32,000 nt of DNA from Candidatus Saccharimonadota bacterium (lineage in GTDB: Bacteria; Pseudomonadota; Gammaproteobacteria; Enterobacterales; Enterobacteriaceae), in NCBI GenBank assembly GCA_000217635.1, contig CP001817.1, positions 360,001-392,000 of the forward strand, read 5' to 3'. The first letter of the stretch is position 1. Each line of letters starts with the position of its first letter. This document shows positions 3,226 through 28,447 of the stretch, piece after piece. Below the pieces are notes generated by a model. It ran no database searches and was not told the origin of the DNA. It worked only from the letters and a program-made list of their open reading frames with translations. Both the position numbers and the translations under genes were made by a program.

Positions 3226-3842
3226 ATGAACAGATATTTTAAAAAAAACATAAAAAAAAACTCTATTTCTATACCATTTGTTATTGATCAGACAGAACGT
3301 GGAGATCGTTCATACGATATATTTTCACGATTATTAAAAGAAAGAATAATCTTCGTTACCGGAGTTATCGAAGATAATTTAGCTAATATGATTGTAGCTC
3401 AAATCCTATTTTTAGAATCAGAAAATAACTCTCAAGATATATATTTATATATTAATTCTCCCGGGGGAATCATTACAGCTGGTTTATCTATTTATGATAC
3501 TATGCAATTTGTAAATCCAGATATTAATACAATTTGCTTAGGGCAATCATGTTCTATGGCCGCAATATTATTATGCGCAGGTAAAAAAGGTAAGAGATTT
3601 TGTTTGCCTAATTCTAGGGTTATGCTACACCAACCTTTAGGTAGTTTTCAAGGGCAAGCTTCAGATATTTTTATACATGCAAAAGAAATAAAAAAACTAA
3701 GGATTCGGTTAATACTATATTGTCATATCATACTCAACAACCAATAAATAAAATCATAGAAGACACTGAAAGAGATTATTTTCTATCTCCACAAGAAGCA
3801 CTTCAATATGGAATAATTGACGATATACTTTATAAAAAATAA
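3226..3842 (+). CDS. clpP: ATP-dependent Clp protease proteolytic subunit, frame broken at an A7 tract (3690-3696)
   Basis: The ORF 3226-3747 matches ClpP up to IHAKEIKK and then diverges. The frame from 3696 to the stop at 3840-3842 reads [48 protein letters not shown], which matches the ClpP C-terminus. One added A joins the two frames into about 205 aa. Confidence 0.9.
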
Positions 3843-3912: not shown

Positions 3913-5151
3913 ATGAATAATATAGATAATAATAAAAAATTATTTTGTATTTTTTGTAATAAAACTCCAGAGAAAACAAAAAAATTAATTATAGGACTAT
4001 CTGGTAATATTTGTACCCAATGTGTTATTTTTTGCTATGATACATTAAAAAAAATAATTATATATATAAAAAAAAGAGAAAAAAATGATTTAACTTCTCC
4101 ATATATAATAAAAAAACATCTAGATAAATATATTATTGGTCAAGAAAAAGCTAAAAAAATTTTTTCGGTATCTGTTTATAATCATTATAAAAAATTAAAA
4201 TATATCCAAGAAAATAAAAATAATATTGAATTAGAAAAAAGTAATATTTTATTATTAGGCCCCACAGGAAGCGGAAAAACCTTATTAGCAAAAACATTAG
4301 CAAAATATTTAAATGTTCCTTTTGCTATAGCAGATGCAACAACGCTTACTCAAGCCGGTTATGTTGGAGAAGATGTAGAAACTATTTTACAAAAACTAAT
4401 AGAAAATAGTAATTATGACATTAAAAAAGCAGAAAAAGGTATTATATATATTGATGAAATAGACAAAATTTCTAAAAAATCAGAAAATTTATCCATAACA
4501 AGAGATGTGTCAGGAGAAGGAGTACAGCAATCACTATTAAAAATAATAGAAGGCACTATAGCTACAGTACCCCCTAAAGGAAGTAGAAAGCATCCGCAAG
4601 AAGATCTATGGAAAATTAATACATCAAATATTTTATTTATTTGTGGAGGAGCTTTTTGTAATATAGATAAAATTATATTAAAACGTGTACAAAAAACACT
4701 AGGTATTGGATTTCACAAAAAAATAAAAGACATTAATAAAATTGAAAAAAAAATATCAAAAAAAGAAAAGATACAACCTCAAGATTTAATAAAATTTGGA
4801 TTAATACCTGAATTTGTCGGAAGATTTCCAATTATTGCAAATTTTGATAGCTTAACTCAACAAAATTTAATAGATATTTTATGTCAACCAAAAAATTCTT
4901 TAATAAAACAATATCAAATTTTATTTTCACTAGATAATATTCAATTAGAATTTGATAAAGAATCTTTAATAGAAATAGCTAAACAGGCTGTGTTAAAAAA
5001 TACAGGTGCAAGAGGTTTACGTGCAACTTTAGAATCAATATTATTGAATACTATGTATGATATATCAATATTAAAAAATATAAAAAAAGTATGTATTAAT
5101 GCTTCTGTAATAAAAAATAAAACAGCACCAAAATTAATTTTTTCAAAATAA
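3913..5151 (+). CDS. clpX: ATP-dependent Clp protease ATP-binding subunit ClpX
   Basis: 412 aa. It has an N-terminal CxxC...CxxC zinc finger, Walker A GPTGSGKT, IYIDEIDKI, RDVSGEGVQQSLLK and TGARGLR. It is colinear with E. coli ClpX. Confidence 0.97.
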   Translation: MNNIDNNKKLFCIFCNKTPEKTKKLIIGLSGNICTQCVIFCYDTLKKIIIYIKKREKNDLTSPYIIKKHLDKYIIGQEKAKKIFSVSVYNHYKKLKYIQENKNNIELEKSNILLLGPTGSGKTLLAKTLAKYLNVPFAIADATTLTQAGYVGEDVETILQKLIENSNYDIKKAEKGIIYIDEIDKISKKSENLSITRDVSGEGVQQSLLKIIEGTIATVPPKGSRKHPQEDLWKINTSNILFICGGAFCNIDKIILKRVQKTLGIGFHKKIKDINKIEKKISKKEKIQPQDLIKFGLIPEFVGRFPIIANFDSLTQQNLIDILCQPKNSLIKQYQILFSLDNIQLEFDKESLIEIAKQAVLKNTGARGLRATLESILLNTMYDISILKNIKKVCINASVIKNKTAPKLIFSK

Positions 5152-7805: not shown

Positions 7806-9682
7806 ATGTCAAAAATTAATTTTTTTTCAAAAAAAATATTAGCAATTATTATTATCGTAACAATTATGCTATCTATAATCTTTAATAGTATAGTGATTTA
7901 CTTTATAAAAGATTATAAAAATCACGCTATTTTAATTAATAACGAAAAAATTTCACCTAAAATAATACAGTGTCTGTATTCTTTTAAAAAAAAATATCAT
8001 CAGAATCAAGAAAAAAATAAAACAAATGATTTAGAAACTAATTTTTATAAAAATTATTATATAAAAAAATATTAATGAAAATAATTTATACTTCTTTATT
8101 AAAACAATATACACAAAAAATTCATTTTCACATTAATACTGAAAATATTAAAAATATTATTAAATCATCAAAATTCTTTAAAATAAATAATAAATTCAAT
8201 TTAAATAAATATTTAAATTTTTTAAATTCTATTGAATTAACTAATGCTCAATATTTATCTGCTCTTAAAAATAAAAATTCCGTAAAATCTTTAATATTAT
8301 TATTATTAAAATCAGAAATATTTCTTGAAAAATATGTTCATAAAATTATGAATCAGCATCTTGAGAAAAGAAATGTACAAATAGGATCATTTAATAGTTC
8401 TTTAACAGATTTAGAAAAAAAAATTCCATTTAAAGATATAAAAAACTATTATGTTTTAAATAAAAAAATTTTTTTTATCCAAAAAGAATAAAGTTAGTAA
8501 TATTATGTTTTAAAAAAGCCCTTCCAACAATAAAAAATAATAATAAAATAAATAAATTTAATACAAAAAACATAAAGAAAACTACTCAAAAATACCAAAA
8601 AAAATATCAAATAATTAAAATAAAAAAAATAAAATATGCACAATTATTATTTCATAATATCCAACATAAAAAAAAATTTCATCAAAATATTACAAAACGT
8701 TTACTAGAAATAAAAAAAGAGTATGAAATCCTAAATACAAAATGGATTAATGAAAAAAATTCTTCTGAATTTATAAGAAAATTAAAACTAGATAAAATAG
8801 GAGACATTTCTAAATTAATTAAATATAAAAATAATTTTTATATTGTGATATTAAAAAATAAAAAAATTGAATATACTCACTATCCTGATATTATAAAAAA
8901 AATACAAAAAATCGTATTAATACTATTAATAAAATATCCAAAAATATAAAATTTATAAAAAATATTTCAAATTTATTAATAGAAAATCAATTAAATTTAC
9001 CAAAAAATAATAAGAATATTTATTTAAAAAAATAGAAACAAAATGGATTACACAAGATAAGAAATCCCAATATCGTTATACACATTCATTAATGCATTTC
9101 ATACAAAAAAATTTTTTTTAATCAAACTAATAATTTAACAAATAAAAACCCAATAAAAATTTTTTTATCAAACAAAAATAATGTATATATTTTACAAAAA
9201 AAACTATATCAACCAAAAAAAATTAAAAAATTGGAATGCGTTTATAATACTATTAAAAAAATTTTACAAATTAAAAAATTATATCTAAAAAATTCCTATT
9301 TAATAAAGAAATTTTTATCTAATAAAAATAATATAAATAACAATTTTTTAAAAAATAATAAATTAATATTACAACCAACAAAAACAATAACATTAAAAAA
9401 CAATAAAAAAGATAAACAACTTAAAATAATTTTTAAATTACCTATACCAAAAAAAATAATTTCGTATATACAATACTTCATCAAAAAAATAATCAAGACC
9501 GATTATTAATTTTAAAAAATGTATTTTACCAATCTATTAGTGAGAGTCAGAAAAGAGAATTAATAAAAAAAATAAAAAATCAATATAAAAATTCAATTTT
9601 TTCTACTATATTAAAAAATATATTTCAAAAATCTACAATTCAATATAATGAAAAAATATTAAAAACGATTCAAGTATCTTAA
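7806..9682 (+). pseudogene. ppiD: periplasmic chaperone / PPIase PpiD, fragmented by multiple frameshifts
   Basis: PpiD-like segments occur in order but in different frames. The N-terminal TM segment is 7806-8075 (a TTG at 7791 is also possible). 8075-8491 matches LIDEALLDQY...GKFDNSRY. About 8478-8948 is parvulin-like (YAQLLFHNIQ...NFYIVILKN). 9231-9509 follows, and the last piece ends NSIFSTILKNIFQKSTIQYNEKILKTIQVS at the stop 9680-9682. I traced at least 5 to 6 frame changes. Two of them are at A7 tracts (8063-8069 and 9483-9489). Confidence 0.85.
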
Positions 9683-11264: not shown

Positions 11265-11559
11265 ATGTTTACTGAAAAAAATATTACTGAATTTATGAAT
11301 CAAGCTAAAAATATGCAAGAAAAAAATAAAGAAGATGCAAAAAAATATACAAAATACAGAGGTAATAGGACAATCCGGAGCAGGAATGATTCATATTACT
11401 GTTACTGGAACATATGAATGTAAAAAAGTAGATATTAGTAAAGAATTAATAAATCAAAATAGCAAAAATATTCTTGAAGATTTAATTTCGGCAGCTTTTA
11501 ATGATGCAATAAAAAAAATTTTAGATATACAAAAAGATAAATTAACTTTACAATCATAA
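11265..11559 (+). CDS. ybaB: nucleoid-associated protein YbaB/EbfC, frame broken at an A7 tract (11339-11345)
   Basis: The ATG at 11265 opens MFTEKNITEFMNQAKNMQEKNKEDAKK, compared with E. coli [20 protein letters not shown]. The remainder (IQNTEVIGQSGAGMIHITVTG...AAFNDAIKKI) lies in the next frame, which is the track ORF 11335-11559. Removing one A gives an alignment of exact length. Confidence 0.85.
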
Positions 11560-11723: not shown

Positions 11724-13601
11724 ATGAACAATGAAAATAAAACGAAACATTCTTTTCAGTCAGAAGTTAAACAATTACTCCATTTAATGATTCATTCTCT
11801 ATATTCAAATAAAGAAATCTTCTTACGAGAATTAATTTCTAATGCATCTGATGCTATCGAAAAATTAAGATTTTCCGTTATTTCTAATCCTAAAAAATTT
11901 ATAAATCATAATAATACTGCAAAGATACAAATTTCTATTGATAAAACAAAAAAAACATTATCAATTTATGACAATGGTATCGGTATGACTTATGATGAAG
12001 TAAAAAATAATTTAGGAACAATTGCAAAATCAGGTACAAAATCATTTTTAAAAAATATTAGTAATGATAAAAAAGAAAAGAATGATTTTATTGGACAATT
12101 TGGAGTAGGATTTTATTCTTCTTTTATAATTGCAAAAAAAGTATGTGTATTTACTAAACATGCTCAAAACCTATCTGATACAGGAACATTATGGGAATCT
12201 GAAGGTCAAGGTGAATATACAATCGAAAAAATTAAACAAAAAGAATATGGAACAAAAATTATTTTATATATTAAAGAAACAGAAGAAGAATTTTTAGAAA
12301 CTTGGAATATAAAAAACATTGTAAAAAAATATTCTGATCATATTTCTATACCTGTAGAAATAGAAAACTATGATGAAAAAACAAAGTTATTTCTTGGGAG
12401 AAAATTAATCAAGCACAAAGCATATGGACTAAAAATAAAAAAAGAAATTTCTGCAAAATCATATCAAGAATTTTATAAATATATAACACATGATTCTGAG
12501 GAACCATTATTATGGAGTCATAATAAAGTTGAAGGAAACCAAGAATATACAAGTTTATTATACATTCCTCAAAAAGCTACTTGGGATATGTGGCACAGAG
12601 AAAATAAACATGGTTTAAAATTATATGTTAAACACGTATATATTATGGATGATGCAATTCAATTTTTACCAAATTATTTAAGGTTTGTAAAAGGAATTAT
12701 CGATTCTCAAGATTTACCTTTAAATATTTCTAGAGAAATTTTACAAGATAATAAAATTACGCAAAATTTACGAAAATCTTTAACTAAAAGAGTATTAACT
12801 ATATTAAATAATTTATCTGAAACAGATGACATTAAGTATCAAAAATTCTGGAATATTTTTGGTTTAGTATTAAAAGAAGGACTAGCAGAAGATTCAATCA
12901 ATCAAAAACAAATATCTAATTTACTTCGATTTACATCTATTAGTATGCAAAAAAAAGAACAAACATTATCGTTAAAACAATATATTAATAATATGCTTCC
13001 TGAACAAGAAAAAATATATTTTATTACAGCAGATAGTTATGAATCAGCAATTAATAGCCCTCATTTAGAAATATTTCGAGAAAAAAATATTGATGTACTT
13101 TTATTGTCAGATCGTGTTGATGAATGGATGATGAATTATTTGCCAGAATATGAAAATAAAAAATTTCAATCGGTAAGTAAATCAGATATTTCATTAGAAA
13201 AATTAATTAAAAATGATAAATTAAATATAGATCAAAAAGATCAAAATATAGATATTTTTATTGAAAAAAATAAAAATATATTAGGAAATCGTGTTAAAGA
13301 TGTTCGTATGACTAACCGACTTATTAATACTCCTGTAATGGTATTAACTGATACAAATGATATGAGCACTCAAATGGCAAAATTATTTAGTGCAGCTGGA
13401 CAACCTATACCAGACGTGAAATATTTATTAGAAATTAATCCAAAACACCCATTAATAAAAAAAATACAAAATATAAAAGATATAGAAAAAATTTCTATAT
13501 GGATTGAAATGTTATTTGAACAGGCAATTTTTGCTGAAAAAGGAACATTAGATAATCCTCATCAATTTATTAATAGAATTAATAAATTGTTTATATCATA
13601 A
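11724..13601 (+). CDS. htpG: molecular chaperone HtpG (Hsp90); open ORF containing an internal out-of-frame segment
   Basis: 625 aa. It has FQSEVKQLLHLMIHSLYSNKEIFLRELISNASDA, GQFGVGFYS, NYLRFVKGIIDSQDLPLNISRE and MSTQMAKLF. It is colinear with E. coli HtpG except for 12381-12443 (see findings). Confidence 0.95.
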   Translation: MNNENKTKHSFQSEVKQLLHLMIHSLYSNKEIFLRELISNASDAIEKLRFSVISNPKKFINHNNTAKIQISIDKTKKTLSIYDNGIGMTYDEVKNNLGTIAKSGTKSFLKNISNDKKEKNDFIGQFGVGFYSSFIIAKKVCVFTKHAQNLSDTGTLWESEGQGEYTIEKIKQKEYGTKIILYIKETEEEFLETWNIKNIVKKYSDHISIPVEIENYDEKTKLFLGRKLIKHKAYGLKIKKEISAKSYQEFYKYITHDSEEPLLWSHNKVEGNQEYTSLLYIPQKATWDMWHRENKHGLKLYVKHVYIMDDAIQFLPNYLRFVKGIIDSQDLPLNISREILQDNKITQNLRKSLTKRVLTILNNLSETDDIKYQKFWNIFGLVLKEGLAEDSINQKQISNLLRFTSISMQKKEQTLSLKQYINNMLPEQEKIYFITADSYESAINSPHLEIFREKNIDVLLLSDRVDEWMMNYLPEYENKKFQSVSKSDISLEKLIKNDKLNIDQKDQNIDIFIEKNKNILGNRVKDVRMTNRLINTPVMVLTDTNDMSTQMAKLFSAAGQPIPDVKYLLEINPKHPLIKKIQNIKDIEKISIWIEMLFEQAIFAEKGTLDNPHQFINRINKLFIS

Positions 13602-18180: not shown

Positions 18181-18185
<5 letters not shown>
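18164..18185 (-). other. 3' half of the 23S rRNA processing stem (pairs with 21105-21124)
   Basis: aacacctctggtgttgtaagg (18164-18184) is nearly the reverse complement of ccttacaacccacaggtgtt (21105-21124). The two halves bracket the 23S gene, as RNase III processing stems do in enterobacterial rRNA operons. Confidence 0.55.
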
Positions 18186-21106
<2,921 letters not shown>

Positions 21107-21368: not shown

Positions 21369-21446
21369 GTCTTTTTTTATGTTTTTTAAAAAATATCATT
21401 TTTTATAAAAATTTTTATGTAACAAACGAATAAATAAATTAATATT

Positions 21447-22230
21447 TTAAATATTAAGTATTATATGAAACCACGAAAAAAAACGTAATCTGTATTACTA
21501 AAATACCTATCCTATCAGAAAAATTTTTTATTCCTTCTCTTTTACATAATAATAAGAATGAAGTCAAGTTACCATTTTTATTATAAGAAATATCATAAAA
21601 AAAGTTTTTTTATATAATATAACAAGTATGAAATATAAGGAATGTCATCATAAAAACTACATGAAATAGAATTTACAATACAATAAAAAAAATTAAATAC
21701 CATATTTTATTTTAAAAATAAAAATTTCTCTAAATATTTTAAATTTTTTAACTAATATTTTAAATTTTTGGACAGCTTTCTTTAATATATAAACACGATA
21801 ATTTTTGATTAATAAATAATATATAACTAATATTGTAATTCCACCTACTCCTAATCATAAAGAGTTTGTATTTTTTTTAAAAAAAAATAAATCTTTTAAA
21901 TCATATAATAAACTTAATCCATCAATATTACTACCTATAATTTTTTGTTAGAATATTTTATTAAAGTATTTACTGTTTTTAAATTCTTTTAAATATCTAT
22001 TTATTATATAAATAATTAAAAAAATTTTCTTTTTTAAAGATATAATAATATTAACTCTAAAATTTCCATTACCACAAAAATTAAAAAATATAACAAAAAA
22101 ATTTATACCTACATATAATACAGAGATTTATTGATATAATATATTTTTTTCTTTGAAAAACATTTATGTATTATATAAGTGATAATAGATATTTAATAGG
22201 ATTTCCAAATAATGTAATATATTTTCCCAT
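21447..22230 (-). pseudogene. aroE: shikimate dehydrogenase remnant, near full length but with frameshifts and an in-frame stop
   Basis: The minus strand starts at the ATG at 22230 with MGKYITLFGNPIKY (E. coli ETYAVFGNPIAH). Later pieces lie in other frames. They are GNGNFRVNIIISLKKK (GGKGANVTVPFKEE), QKIIGSNIDGLSLLYDLKDL ([20 protein letters not shown]), a TGA followed by LGVGGITILVIYYLL (LIGAGGASRGVLLPLL), and DRIGILVIQ (DGLGMLVAQ). Confidence 0.8.
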
Positions 22231-22484
22231 TTTTTTCTAAAAGACTTTTTTGCAACATATCATAATCCTATGGTATAATAAAAAAAATTTAAAATTTTAT
22301 TAATATATTAATTAAAAAAAATAAATTTTTTATACACTTGTAATATCATTACTTTATATACTAAAAATTAAAAAATTATTAAAAAAAAATTTTTTTAATA
22401 ATTTAAAAAATTTGTTTTAAGTTCATTAATTCTTTTTTATAATTCTTTTTTATATTAAATTTACATATAAATTAAATAATATCT

Positions 22485-22931
22485 ATGTCTATAAAAAAAA
22501 TTTTACAATATCCAGATAATCGTTTACGAAAAATTGCGAAACCAGTCAAAAATATTGGACGAATAACTAAAAAAATAATCAGTGACATGTTTGATACAAT
22601 GTTAGCACATAAAGGGATTGGATTGGCCGCAACGCAAATTAATATTCACCAACAAATTATTGTAATAAAAAAAAATATATACAAAAATCCATCATTAATT
22701 TTAATTAATCCTATTCTTTTAAAGTCTTCCGGAAACATTGCTATTAATGAAAGCTGTTTATCTGTACCAAACATTCAAAAAAAATTAATCGAGCATATTA
22801 TATTCACGTTAATGCAATAAACTATAACGGAAAAAAAAATAACAATAAAAGCTAAGTCTTTATTAGCAATATGTATTCAACATGAACTAGATCATTTAAT
22901 AGGAAAACTATTTATTGATCACCTTATATAA
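22485..22931 (+). CDS. def: peptide deformylase, frame broken at A8 (22777-22784) and A9 (22831-22839) tracts
   Basis: Frame 0 reads [21 protein letters not shown]...GIGLAATQ...[12 protein letters not shown]. The middle piece [18 protein letters not shown] lies in another frame. The last piece [30 protein letters not shown] returns to frame 0, with its stop at 22929-22931. The three pieces joined align to E. coli Def with exact spacing. Confidence 0.88.
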
Positions 22932-22962: not shown

Positions 22963-23902
22963 ATGTCTAAAAAAAAAATTACGTATTATTTTTGCTGGAA
23001 CTAATGAGTTTTCACTCCAACATTTAAAATCATTATTTTTATCAAATTATATTATTAGTGCTGTTATTACTAAATATAATAAGAAAACAATTTCTCCTAT
23101 AAAAGATTTTGCATTAAATCACAATATTTTTATATTACAACCTAAAAATTTAAATAAAAAAAGTTTTTATAATACAATTAAAAAATACAGGCAAATATTT
23201 TTAATTGTATGTGCATATGGTATGATTATACCTTCTTCAATACTAAAACTGTTTTCAAAAAAAGCAATAAATATACACGCTTCTCTGTTACCCCGATGGA
23301 GGGGAGCTGCTCCAATCCAATGGGCTATATTATCTGGTGATAATAATACCGGAATTAGTATTATTCAAATGAATGATCAAATAGATGCTGGAAAAATTTT
23401 ATATTCCGTCTCTTGTCCTATTCATAACTCTGATACAACTAAAACAATATATAAAAAATTAATACCTATTTCAATAAACGCTATGCATCATATTTTAATA
23501 AAAATCATTAAAAATAACATTATCAATTCTTATAAACAAGATATAAAAAAAATAACTTACGCGCCCAAAATAAAAAAAGAACAGACACGGATATCATGGA
23601 AAAAATCAGCACAATATAATGAACGATTAATACGCGCATTAAACCCTTATCCTTATTGTTATTTTATTTTAAAAGATAAAATTATTAAAATAATACAAGC
23701 ATCTGTATTATTAAATGATTATAAAAAAAACTATAGAATTGGAGAAATTGTGTGCGCCAATCAGTTAGGTATACAAGTATATTCAAAAAATAAATTATTA
23801 AATATAGAAGTAGTACAAATAGCCGGAGGTATACCTATACATGTTAGTCAATTATTACATTCTAAAAAATCTTGGTTTACTCCTGGAACTATAATATTAT
23901 AA
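22963..23902 (+). CDS. fmt: methionyl-tRNA formyltransferase, frame broken in an A10 tract right after the start codon
   Basis: ATG TCT at 22963 is followed by A10 (22969-22978). The next frame is open from there to 23902 and reads [16 protein letters not shown]...VCAYGMIIP...INIHASLLPRWRGAAPIQ, colinear with E. coli Fmt ([20 protein letters not shown]...). The track ORF 23222-23902 is only the part after an internal Met. Confidence 0.9.
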
Positions 23903-26110: not shown

Positions 26111-26524
26111 TTATACACGACGCTTTTTTGGTGGACGACAACCATTATGAGGAATGGGTGTAATATCTGTAATATTTGTAATACGAAACCCAACAGTATT
26201 TAATGCTCTAATTGTAGACTCTCGTCCCGGACCAGGACCTTTTACCATAATTTCTAAATTTTTTATTCCATATTCTTTTACAATATCAGCGCATCTTTCG
26301 GCTGCAACTTGTGCTGCAAAAGGCGTTGATTTTCGCGATCCTCTAAACCCTGAACCGCCTGAAGTAGCCCAACCTAATGTATGACCTTGACGATCAGTAA
26401 TTGTGACAATTGTATTATTAAATGATGCATGTATATGAGCGATACCATCAATAATTTGCCTTTTAACTCTTTTTTTAAATGTAATGTTTTTGTTTTTACC
26501 ATTATTTAGTAACCCTATCTTCAT
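26111..26524 (-). CDS. rpsK: 30S ribosomal protein S11
   Basis: 137 aa. [51 protein letters not shown]...[15 protein letters not shown] matches S11. Its ATG overlaps the rpsM TGA as ATGA. Confidence 0.96.
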
Positions 26525-27154: not shown

Positions 27155-28447
27155 TTATGTTTTTAAATATAAATGCGCTTTTTTTAAAACCGATTTATAT
27201 TGAGTAGACATAATAAATGTTTGTACTTGAGTTATAAAATCTATTATAACAACAACTATAATTAATAAAGACGTTCCACCAAAATAAAATGGAACACATA
27301 AAAAATAACGCATGATTTCAGGTGTTAAACAAATAAAAACAGTATATATAGATCCAATTAATGTTAACCGTAATACTATTTTTTTAATATATTTAGATGT
27401 TTGTATTCCCGGGCGTATTCCAGGTAAAAAAGCACCAGATTTTTTTAAATTATCAGATGTATCGTTAACATTAAAAATTAAACCGGTATAAAAAAACAAA
27501 AAAATATAATCAAAAAATATAAAGAACAAAATATAAAAAATGATTAGGACGTAAAGATAATAAAAAACTAAAAAATTGTTTTTTTCATTACAAATATTAT
27601 AAAAATAAGTAGCTATCATTGATGGAAATAAAATAATACTTGATGAAAAAATTACTGGAACAACTCCAGCCATATTTAATTTTAAAGGCAAATAACTACT
27701 ATTTTTTGAATATGTATGACGATTTTGCTGTTGTCTGGCATAATAGACAATAATATTACGCTGACTTTGTTCTATTACAACAACTAAATAAATAATCAAT
27801 ACCATAATTATGGTCACTAATAAACAATAAAATACACTTAATCGATGTAAAAAAATATATTTAATTGTATTTGCTATTGATTTTGGTAAACCAGATAAAA
27901 TACCAGAAAAAATAATTAAGGAAATACCATTACCTAACCCCTTTTCTGTAATTAATTCACCTAACCACATTAGAAAAATAGTCCCAGTTACTAAACTAAT
28001 TACTGCAGGAAAATAAAATTCAAAGCCAGAAGCAATTATAATATTTTTCATTCCGGGTATATATGGTAAACCAATAATAACACTAAAAGATTGAATGCAT
28101 GCTAAAAAAAAAGTAATAAACTTTGTGTACTGATTAATTTTATTTCGTCCAAGCTCACCTTCTTTTTTTAGCTCCTTCAAAAAATTACACGTTACAGTTA
28201 ATAATTCAATTATAATAGATGCAGAGATATATGGCATGACACCTAATGCAAATATAGATGCCCTACTTAAAGAACCTCCAGAAAATAAATTAAAAATTTC
28301 TAAAACAGAATTATGCTTCTGAATTAAAAATTGTTGTAATACGTCAACATTAATTCCAGGAATTGGAATAAATGATCCTATTCGAAATATTAAAATTGCT
28401 CCAATTAAAAACCAAATTCTATTTTTTAAATTATTTATATTTTCCAT
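27155..28447 (-). CDS. secY: preprotein translocase subunit SecY
   Basis: 430 aa. It has FRIGSFIPIPGI, FSGGSLSRASIFALGVMPYISASIIIELL, NLKKSGAFLPGIRPG and FYFGGTSLLIIVVV. It is colinear with E. coli SecY. Confidence 0.97.
   Translation of the reverse strand: MENINNLKNRIWFLIGAILIFRIGSFIPIPGINVDVLQQFLIQKHNSVLEIFNLFSGGSLSRASIFALGVMPYISASIIIELLTVTCNFLKELKKEGELGRNKINQYTKFITFFLACIQSFSVIIGLPYIPGMKNIIIASGFEFYFPAVISLVTGTIFLMWLGELITEKGLGNGISLIIFSGILSGLPKSIANTIKYIFLHRLSVFYCLLVTIIMVLIIYLVVVIEQSQRNIIVYYARQQQNRHTYSKNSSYLPLKLNMAGVVPVIFSSSIILFPSMIATYFYNICNEKNNFLVFYYLYVLIIFYILFFIFFDYIFLFFYTGLIFNVNDTSDNLKKSGAFLPGIRPGIQTSKYIKKIVLRLTLIGSIYTVFICLTPEIMRYFLCVPFYFGGTSLLIIVVVIIDFITQVQTFIMSTQYKSVLKKAHLYLKT

Follow-up and report, generated by a model that had tools for sequence, protein, structure and literature searches.

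Run-length anomalies in htpG and other genes of Buchnera aphidicola from Cinara tujafilina are probably homopolymer miscalls

The DNA analysed here, which we call the window, is a stretch of 32,000 nucleotides with a G+C content of 25% from the genome of Buchnera aphidicola of the aphid Cinara tujafilina (BCt; record CP001817), for which the primary genome paper is reportedly that of Lamelas et al. in AEM in 2011. The genes clpP-clpX-lon-ppiD-dnaX-ybaB-htpG-adk lie here in the same order as in related Buchnera. Within htpG, two adenine runs and the bases that separate them set the gene apart from its relatives:

11724 to 13601, forward strand: htpG ORF, 625 aa, 100% identical to AEH39883.1 / WP_013878020.1 (heat shock protein 90)
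12376 to 12381, forward strand: first run, A6 where relatives have A7, A7 and A6G (one base fewer); exit from the conserved frame
12382 to 12436, forward strand: out-of-frame stretch of 55 nt; the ORF reads LFLGRKLIKHKAYGLKI, and another frame encodes VISWEKINQAQSIWTKN
12437 to 12443, forward strand: second run, A7 where relatives have A6 (one base more); return to the conserved frame

An exact-protein look-up returned no second BCt copy of HtpG, and the protein is the sole member of its 90% protein cluster. A BCt-specific 49-mer had no occurrence in the metagenome contigs scanned, and a scan of genome contigs for htpG returned distant HtpG loci only and no Buchnera. In a separate observation, contig JBPBPJ010000037.1, labelled as a metagenome-assembled genome (MAG) of Janthinobacterium lividum, encodes an HtpG that, compared over the full length, is 68% identical to the Buchnera protein. 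This is unexpectedly close for a betaproteobacterium, and the contig may have been mis-binned.

Read in the annotated frame across both runs, htpG gives ...YDEKTKLFLGRKLIKHKAYGLKIKKEISAKS... (also written KLFLGRKLIKHKAYGLKIKKE), and the alternative frame between the runs gives KNKVISWEKINQAQSIWTKNKK, free of stops. In that other frame the 55 bases between the runs encode KVISWEKINQAQSIWTKNKK, with 19 of 20 residues identical to the nearest relative. The alternative-frame peptide is identical to E. coli HtpG at 14 of 19 positions, a figure that the initial annotation had given and that is correct against the PDB sequence (2IOP/1Y4S), where residues 221–239 are VISWEKINKAQALWTRNKS; the portion VISWEKINQAQSIWTKN corresponds to residues 221–237. 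That a frame should stay open for 20 codons and match its orthologue at 19 of 20 residues is far beyond what chance would be expected to give.

The initial annotation had described an A6 and an A7 run within an ORF that stays open, had read them as one A lost from the first and one gained in the second, with the total length and the frame downstream kept and a conserved element between the runs translated in the wrong frame, and had proposed comparison with htpG of sister strains. This description holds on every point. The runs and the open frame are borne out by the sequence and the 625-aa ORF, and the comparison with the DNA of the three closest relatives (81–82% protein identity) gives A7, A7 and A6G at the first run and A6 in all three at the second, not A6 followed by A7. 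Thus the htpG of the window carries a change of −1 and then one of +1 relative to these genes, and a frameshift-aware protein-to-DNA alignment independently placed a −1 at 12376 and a +1 at 12437. Across the 55-nt stretch itself there are five differences from the relatives, four of which are synonymous in the old frame, the fifth being an Ala/Ser codon; as the differences are mostly synonymous in the old frame, there is no sign that the stretch has evolved in the annotated one.

At the protein level, the segment is located where the N-terminal domain meets the middle domain, and it includes what we take to be the Trp of the (A/P)xWTRN motif, a residue conserved from bacteria to human Hsp90. 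Crystal constructs of the isolated middle domain (2GQ0, 8K2R) begin inside the segment. When 18 HtpG proteins are aligned, all but the window protein keep to the motif xISWEKIN..(A/S)xW, and its departure coincides exactly with the stretch between the two runs; it lacks W225 and W235, each of which is conserved in at least 90% of the set. The initial annotation had named close homologues with the same LFLGRK-type segment as the case that would count against a frameshift. We looked for such homologues in the 18-protein alignment and in the DNA of the three relatives and found none, the segment being unique to the BCt record.

The htpG anomaly is not alone in the window. A tblastn search with a relative's proteins matched several of the window's genes in more than one frame, and we therefore aligned the window gene by gene with a frameshift-aware protein-to-DNA aligner written for this analysis, using as references the relative LT667503.1, E. 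coli ribosomal proteins and the S10/spc/alpha cluster of a closer relative. (An apparent C-terminal shift in rplQ, seen against the E. coli reference, vanished with the closer reference; cyoA was left out, its partial query having been translated in an uncertain frame with an unreliable alignment as the result.) About 19 one-base indels emerged, 13 of them −1 and six +1, over some 21.8 kb of coding sequence, and every one sits in an A/T run of 5–10 bases. They fall in nine of 30 genes: clpP, clpX, ppiD (six events), ybaB, htpG (two), def (two), fmt, rpsK and secY (three). Outside htpG, the affected sites are as follows:

3690 to 3696, forward strand: clpP, unpaired −1 at an A7 run; ORF cut to 173 aa
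4047 to 4085, forward strand: clpX, −1 at the A8 run 4047–4054 (A9 in relatives); ORF stays open
7806 to 9673, forward strand: ppiD, six one-base shifts in A/T runs, near 8050, 8469, 8891, 9031, 9113 and 9451
11320 to 11326, forward strand: ybaB, unpaired +1 at an A7 run (A6 in relatives); gene split into ORFs of 50 and 74 aa
22777 to 22839, forward strand: def, −1 at the A8 run 22777–22784 and +1 at the A9 run 22831–22839, 47–55 nt apart
22969 to 22978, forward strand: fmt, +1 at an A10 run in codons 3–6; gene start disrupted, where A9 would hold the frame
26470 to 26476, reverse strand: rpsK, −1 at a 7-base run near the N-terminus (8 bases in a relative); N-terminus in another frame
27490 to 27585, reverse strand: secY, three −1 changes, each in an A/T run and all inside about 90 nt; net −3, ORF open

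Some of these shifts cut an ORF short and others leave it open. In clpP the last 50 residues are well conserved and continue in another frame to 3839. In clpX the frame is restored about 30 nt after the −1, through a length change in A8/A7 runs that lie in a Lys-rich linker. The shifted stretch of def contains a TAA, so that the ORF ends at 22820 and the annotated Def is 111 aa long and lacks the HExxH motif. The corrected def frame is well conserved; the other frame gives 18 residues where the relative has INRAYKIQVAATNCNGKK. In secY a conserved membrane segment is read in the wrong frame over about 29 residues. Its corrected reading, E?KQFFSFLLSLRPNHFLYFVLY?FLIIFFC?FYTGLIFN (where ? marks a −1 shift), matches the relative's EQKWFFSFLFSLRPNHFLYFLIYIFLIIFFCFFYTGLIFN, and SecY is 430 aa in BCt as against 431 aa in all related Cinara Buchnera.

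After frame correction all nine affected genes are full length, stop-free and of normal identity, and as well conserved as their neighbours. For ppiD the corrected frame has no stop and its identity to the relative is 0.58, compared with 0.55 between two intact relatives. The genes secY, rpsK, def, fmt and clpXP are intact in every related Buchnera examined, and the same method applied between two Illumina-era relatives found no internal frameshift in 4353 codons. Among the 17 events tabulated by run length, the affected fraction climbs from 1.7% of 6-base runs to 8.8% of 7-base and 17.5% of 8-base runs; runs of at least 9 bases contribute few events (one in 23), contrary to the prediction of a simple model in which error grows with length.

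The events are not scattered evenly. Of the 17 events entered in the test, which did not include those in rpsK and fmt, 11 have a neighbour within 90 nt; random placement on runs of the same lengths would give 2.4 (P about 1.5e-4). Every cluster is frame-neutral: htpG, def and the ppiD pair at 9031/9113 as −/+, clpX, and secY as −/−/−. In the three unambiguous pairs (htpG, def and ppiD 9031/9113) the −1 always lies 5′ of the +1. Clustering, frame-neutrality and this order are not predicted by independent random miscalls, and an extra filter, editing or selection is needed to account for them. Candidate causes of the clusters include patches of low coverage or read ends, and ORF-guided manual repair applied at the wrong neighbouring run. 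Frame-neutral sets of errors escape notice because the ORF stays unbroken, and such sets may thus survive ORF-based checks and so become enriched. The biological alternative is that the clustering may reflect selection for real compensation.

The window also holds a gene with a decay pattern quite unlike that of the frame-shifted genes:

21405 to 22258, reverse strand: aroE pseudogene, about 9–13 frame changes and 2–4 stops

Its GGIGANITVPFK, NTDG and GAGGAA motifs (catalytic and NADP-binding) are mutated, and its identity to relatives is 0.53, against 0.71 between two intact relatives used as a control. In contrast to the frame-shifted genes, aroE is a genuine pseudogene, and a broken shikimate dehydrogenase is noteworthy in a symbiont that makes aromatic amino acids.

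Two further observations concern the neighbouring 23S rRNA gene (18181–21106, reverse strand). At 18913, on the reverse strand, BCt has specifically lost one C in GAAAUACCACCC (CCC to CC), a site that is identical in E. coli and in sister Buchnera; it is the sole such indel in rRNA that is 98.1% identical to the sister's. An ORF on the forward strand at 18572–19216 runs antisense inside the gene and has a counterpart in the sister genome (L010, 16857–17234), where it was called as a 125-aa protein; this antisense ORF is almost certainly spurious.

With these patterns in hand, we consider it very probable that the deposited run lengths are wrong and that the true htpG has A7 followed by A6, encodes KVISWEKINQAQSIWTKNKK and contains no biological frameshift. 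That both tract lengths were miscalled had been offered in the initial annotation as the alternative to a frameshift, and it is now the best explanation. The htpG runs differ from those of close relatives by exactly one base in either direction, inside mononucleotide runs. An artefact is favoured because about 19 such events, some of them in essential genes, are absent from relatives and come without other decay. It is also implausible that a viable obligate symbiont should have nine of 30 genes recently frameshifted. In def the two changes are again −1 and +1 and yet a stop is left, so that pairing in this gene cannot be put down to selection for compensation. The annotation deposited with the record retained the shortened ORFs (ClpP of 173 aa, Def of 111 aa, YbaB of 74 aa) and treated ppiD as broken; that it took whatever ORFs were left suggests that the frameshifts were apparently not verified.

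The most likely cause would be homopolymer miscalling in a 454-era assembly that was not polished with another chemistry, the platform being presumed, and manual or ORF-guided editing may have made matters worse on what is likewise a presumed route into the record. Another genome, published in the same year as that of BCt by the laboratory and first author responsible for it, was assembled with Newbler 1.1 from 454 reads alone, Sanger sequencing being confined to the contig joins (PMC3213167). DNA from C. tujafilina was sequenced in the same laboratory on the 454 FLX/Titanium, and a later assembly from this aphid required Illumina polishing (PMC4122931). By analogy with these projects, the BCt chromosome is itself probably a 454 assembly. 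The other papers examined that mention BCt give no error rate for its sequence. The 23S and 5S rRNA genes, a gauge of error that does not depend on frame, contain just one A/T run of at least 6 bases.

The initial annotation had favoured a genuine compensated frameshift. On this reading a deletion in the A7 run would have been fixed by drift in a symbiont of small population size, and an insertion in an A6 run 60 nt downstream would then have restored the frame. We consider this unlikely. Homopolymer indels are known to inactivate Buchnera genes (as cited in PMC5574713), the two htpG indels have opposite sign and restore the frame exactly, and frame-neutral clustering is the outcome expected from selection for compensation; the clustering and frame-neutrality, which independent miscalls do not predict, are the main reason why we leave any appreciable probability to this reading. 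Against it, a similar anomaly recurs about 19 times in the window, secY, def, rpsK and clpX included, so that the reading would need about 19 very recent indels across nine of 30 genes, among them secY and rpsK, with no substitutional decay and with none of the indels common to any relative. The def pair fails to rescue its ORF, the ppiD pair stands among four unpaired shifts, and the interior of the htpG stretch differs mainly at sites that are synonymous in the old frame. A further and very unlikely reading would place the variation inside the aphid: Buchnera is highly polyploid, and a mixture of run lengths could yield a consensus that is a minority or chimeric combination of real variants. 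Such heterogeneity would fit the presence of plus as well as minus calls at runs, but it accounts neither for the complete absence of events in relatives whose assemblies come from comparable mixed populations nor for frameshift variants at high frequency in essential genes.

Rescue by slippage, also raised in the initial annotation, would require a +1 at the A6 run and a −1 at the A7 run in one transcript, or two ribosomal shifts. As the insertion and the deletion are needed together, we rate it as exceedingly improbable; two independent events per molecule have the product of two small probabilities, and double slippage within one transcript, at runs of this length, is negligible in quantity. 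In Buchnera and Blochmannia, rescue has been documented at long poly(A) runs, with 12–50% corrected transcripts (PMC5009743), whereas the htpG runs are 6 and 7 bases long. Across the Buchnera transcriptome, insertions become exponentially more frequent as runs lengthen, deletions in runs occur far less often than insertions, indels of both kinds amount to about 3e-5 per nucleotide, and no frame-restoring transcription error was seen (PMC5574713). Frequent slipping at the roughly 250 runs of 6–8 bases in 21.8 kb would wreck most transcripts, and the htpG frameshift is unique to the BCt record, with no conservation across strains or species. Programmed ribosomal frameshifting was rejected by reasoning: a −1 shift would have to be followed by a +1 shift, relatives have nothing of the kind, and the first htpG site offers no canonical X XXY YYZ heptamer in the zero frame.

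Three known systems come close to the htpG anomaly. The first is the 454 homopolymer errors of AT-rich genomes. The window events resemble them in being one-base under- and over-calls confined to A/T runs (here of 5–10 bases), in being frequent, in a rate that rises from 6- to 8-base runs, in leaving genes otherwise intact, and in being absent from relatives sequenced later; they differ in clustering, frame-neutrality and the −1-before-+1 order, and the platform behind the window is itself presumed. The slippage-rescued frameshifts of Tamas et al. (2008), as far as they are described in PMC5009743, concern the same group of organisms and A runs in conserved genes and, like htpG, keep the downstream frame conserved. 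As described there, however, they are single shifts at long runs for which corrected transcripts were measured, whereas the htpG anomaly is paired, lies in runs of 6–7 bases and is common to no relative. To compensatory frameshifts in protein evolution htpG is alike in form, its −1 and +1 lying 61 nt apart, restoring the frame and replacing a short peptide; the differences are that the stretch is among the most conserved in Hsp90, that it shows no evolution in the new frame, and that the like-shaped pair in def does not rescue its ORF.

Were the compensated frameshift true after all, the 19 residues at the HtpG junction would have given way to an unrelated basic peptide, with the loss of two Trp conserved in at least 90% of aligned HtpG, and a deeply conserved element of Hsp90 would prove replaceable. 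It is doubtful that a large number of homopolymer frameshifts became fixed in the lineage in recent times, with several (htpG, clpX, secY) made good by a second indel a few dozen bases away. If the deposited lengths were true, this symbiont would tolerate a chaperone, a protease and a translocon with scrambled patches of 10–30 residues, a case of frameshift-and-compensate evolution under extreme drift, and compensated frameshifts would be common in a degenerate symbiont. If, as we consider very probable, the run lengths were miscalled, the NCBI and UniProt entries for HtpG, ClpX, SecY, ClpP, Def, YbaB, S11, Fmt and the PpiD fragments are likely scrambled or truncated, and inferences of gene loss and pseudogenes in BCt need to be re-checked against accurate reads.
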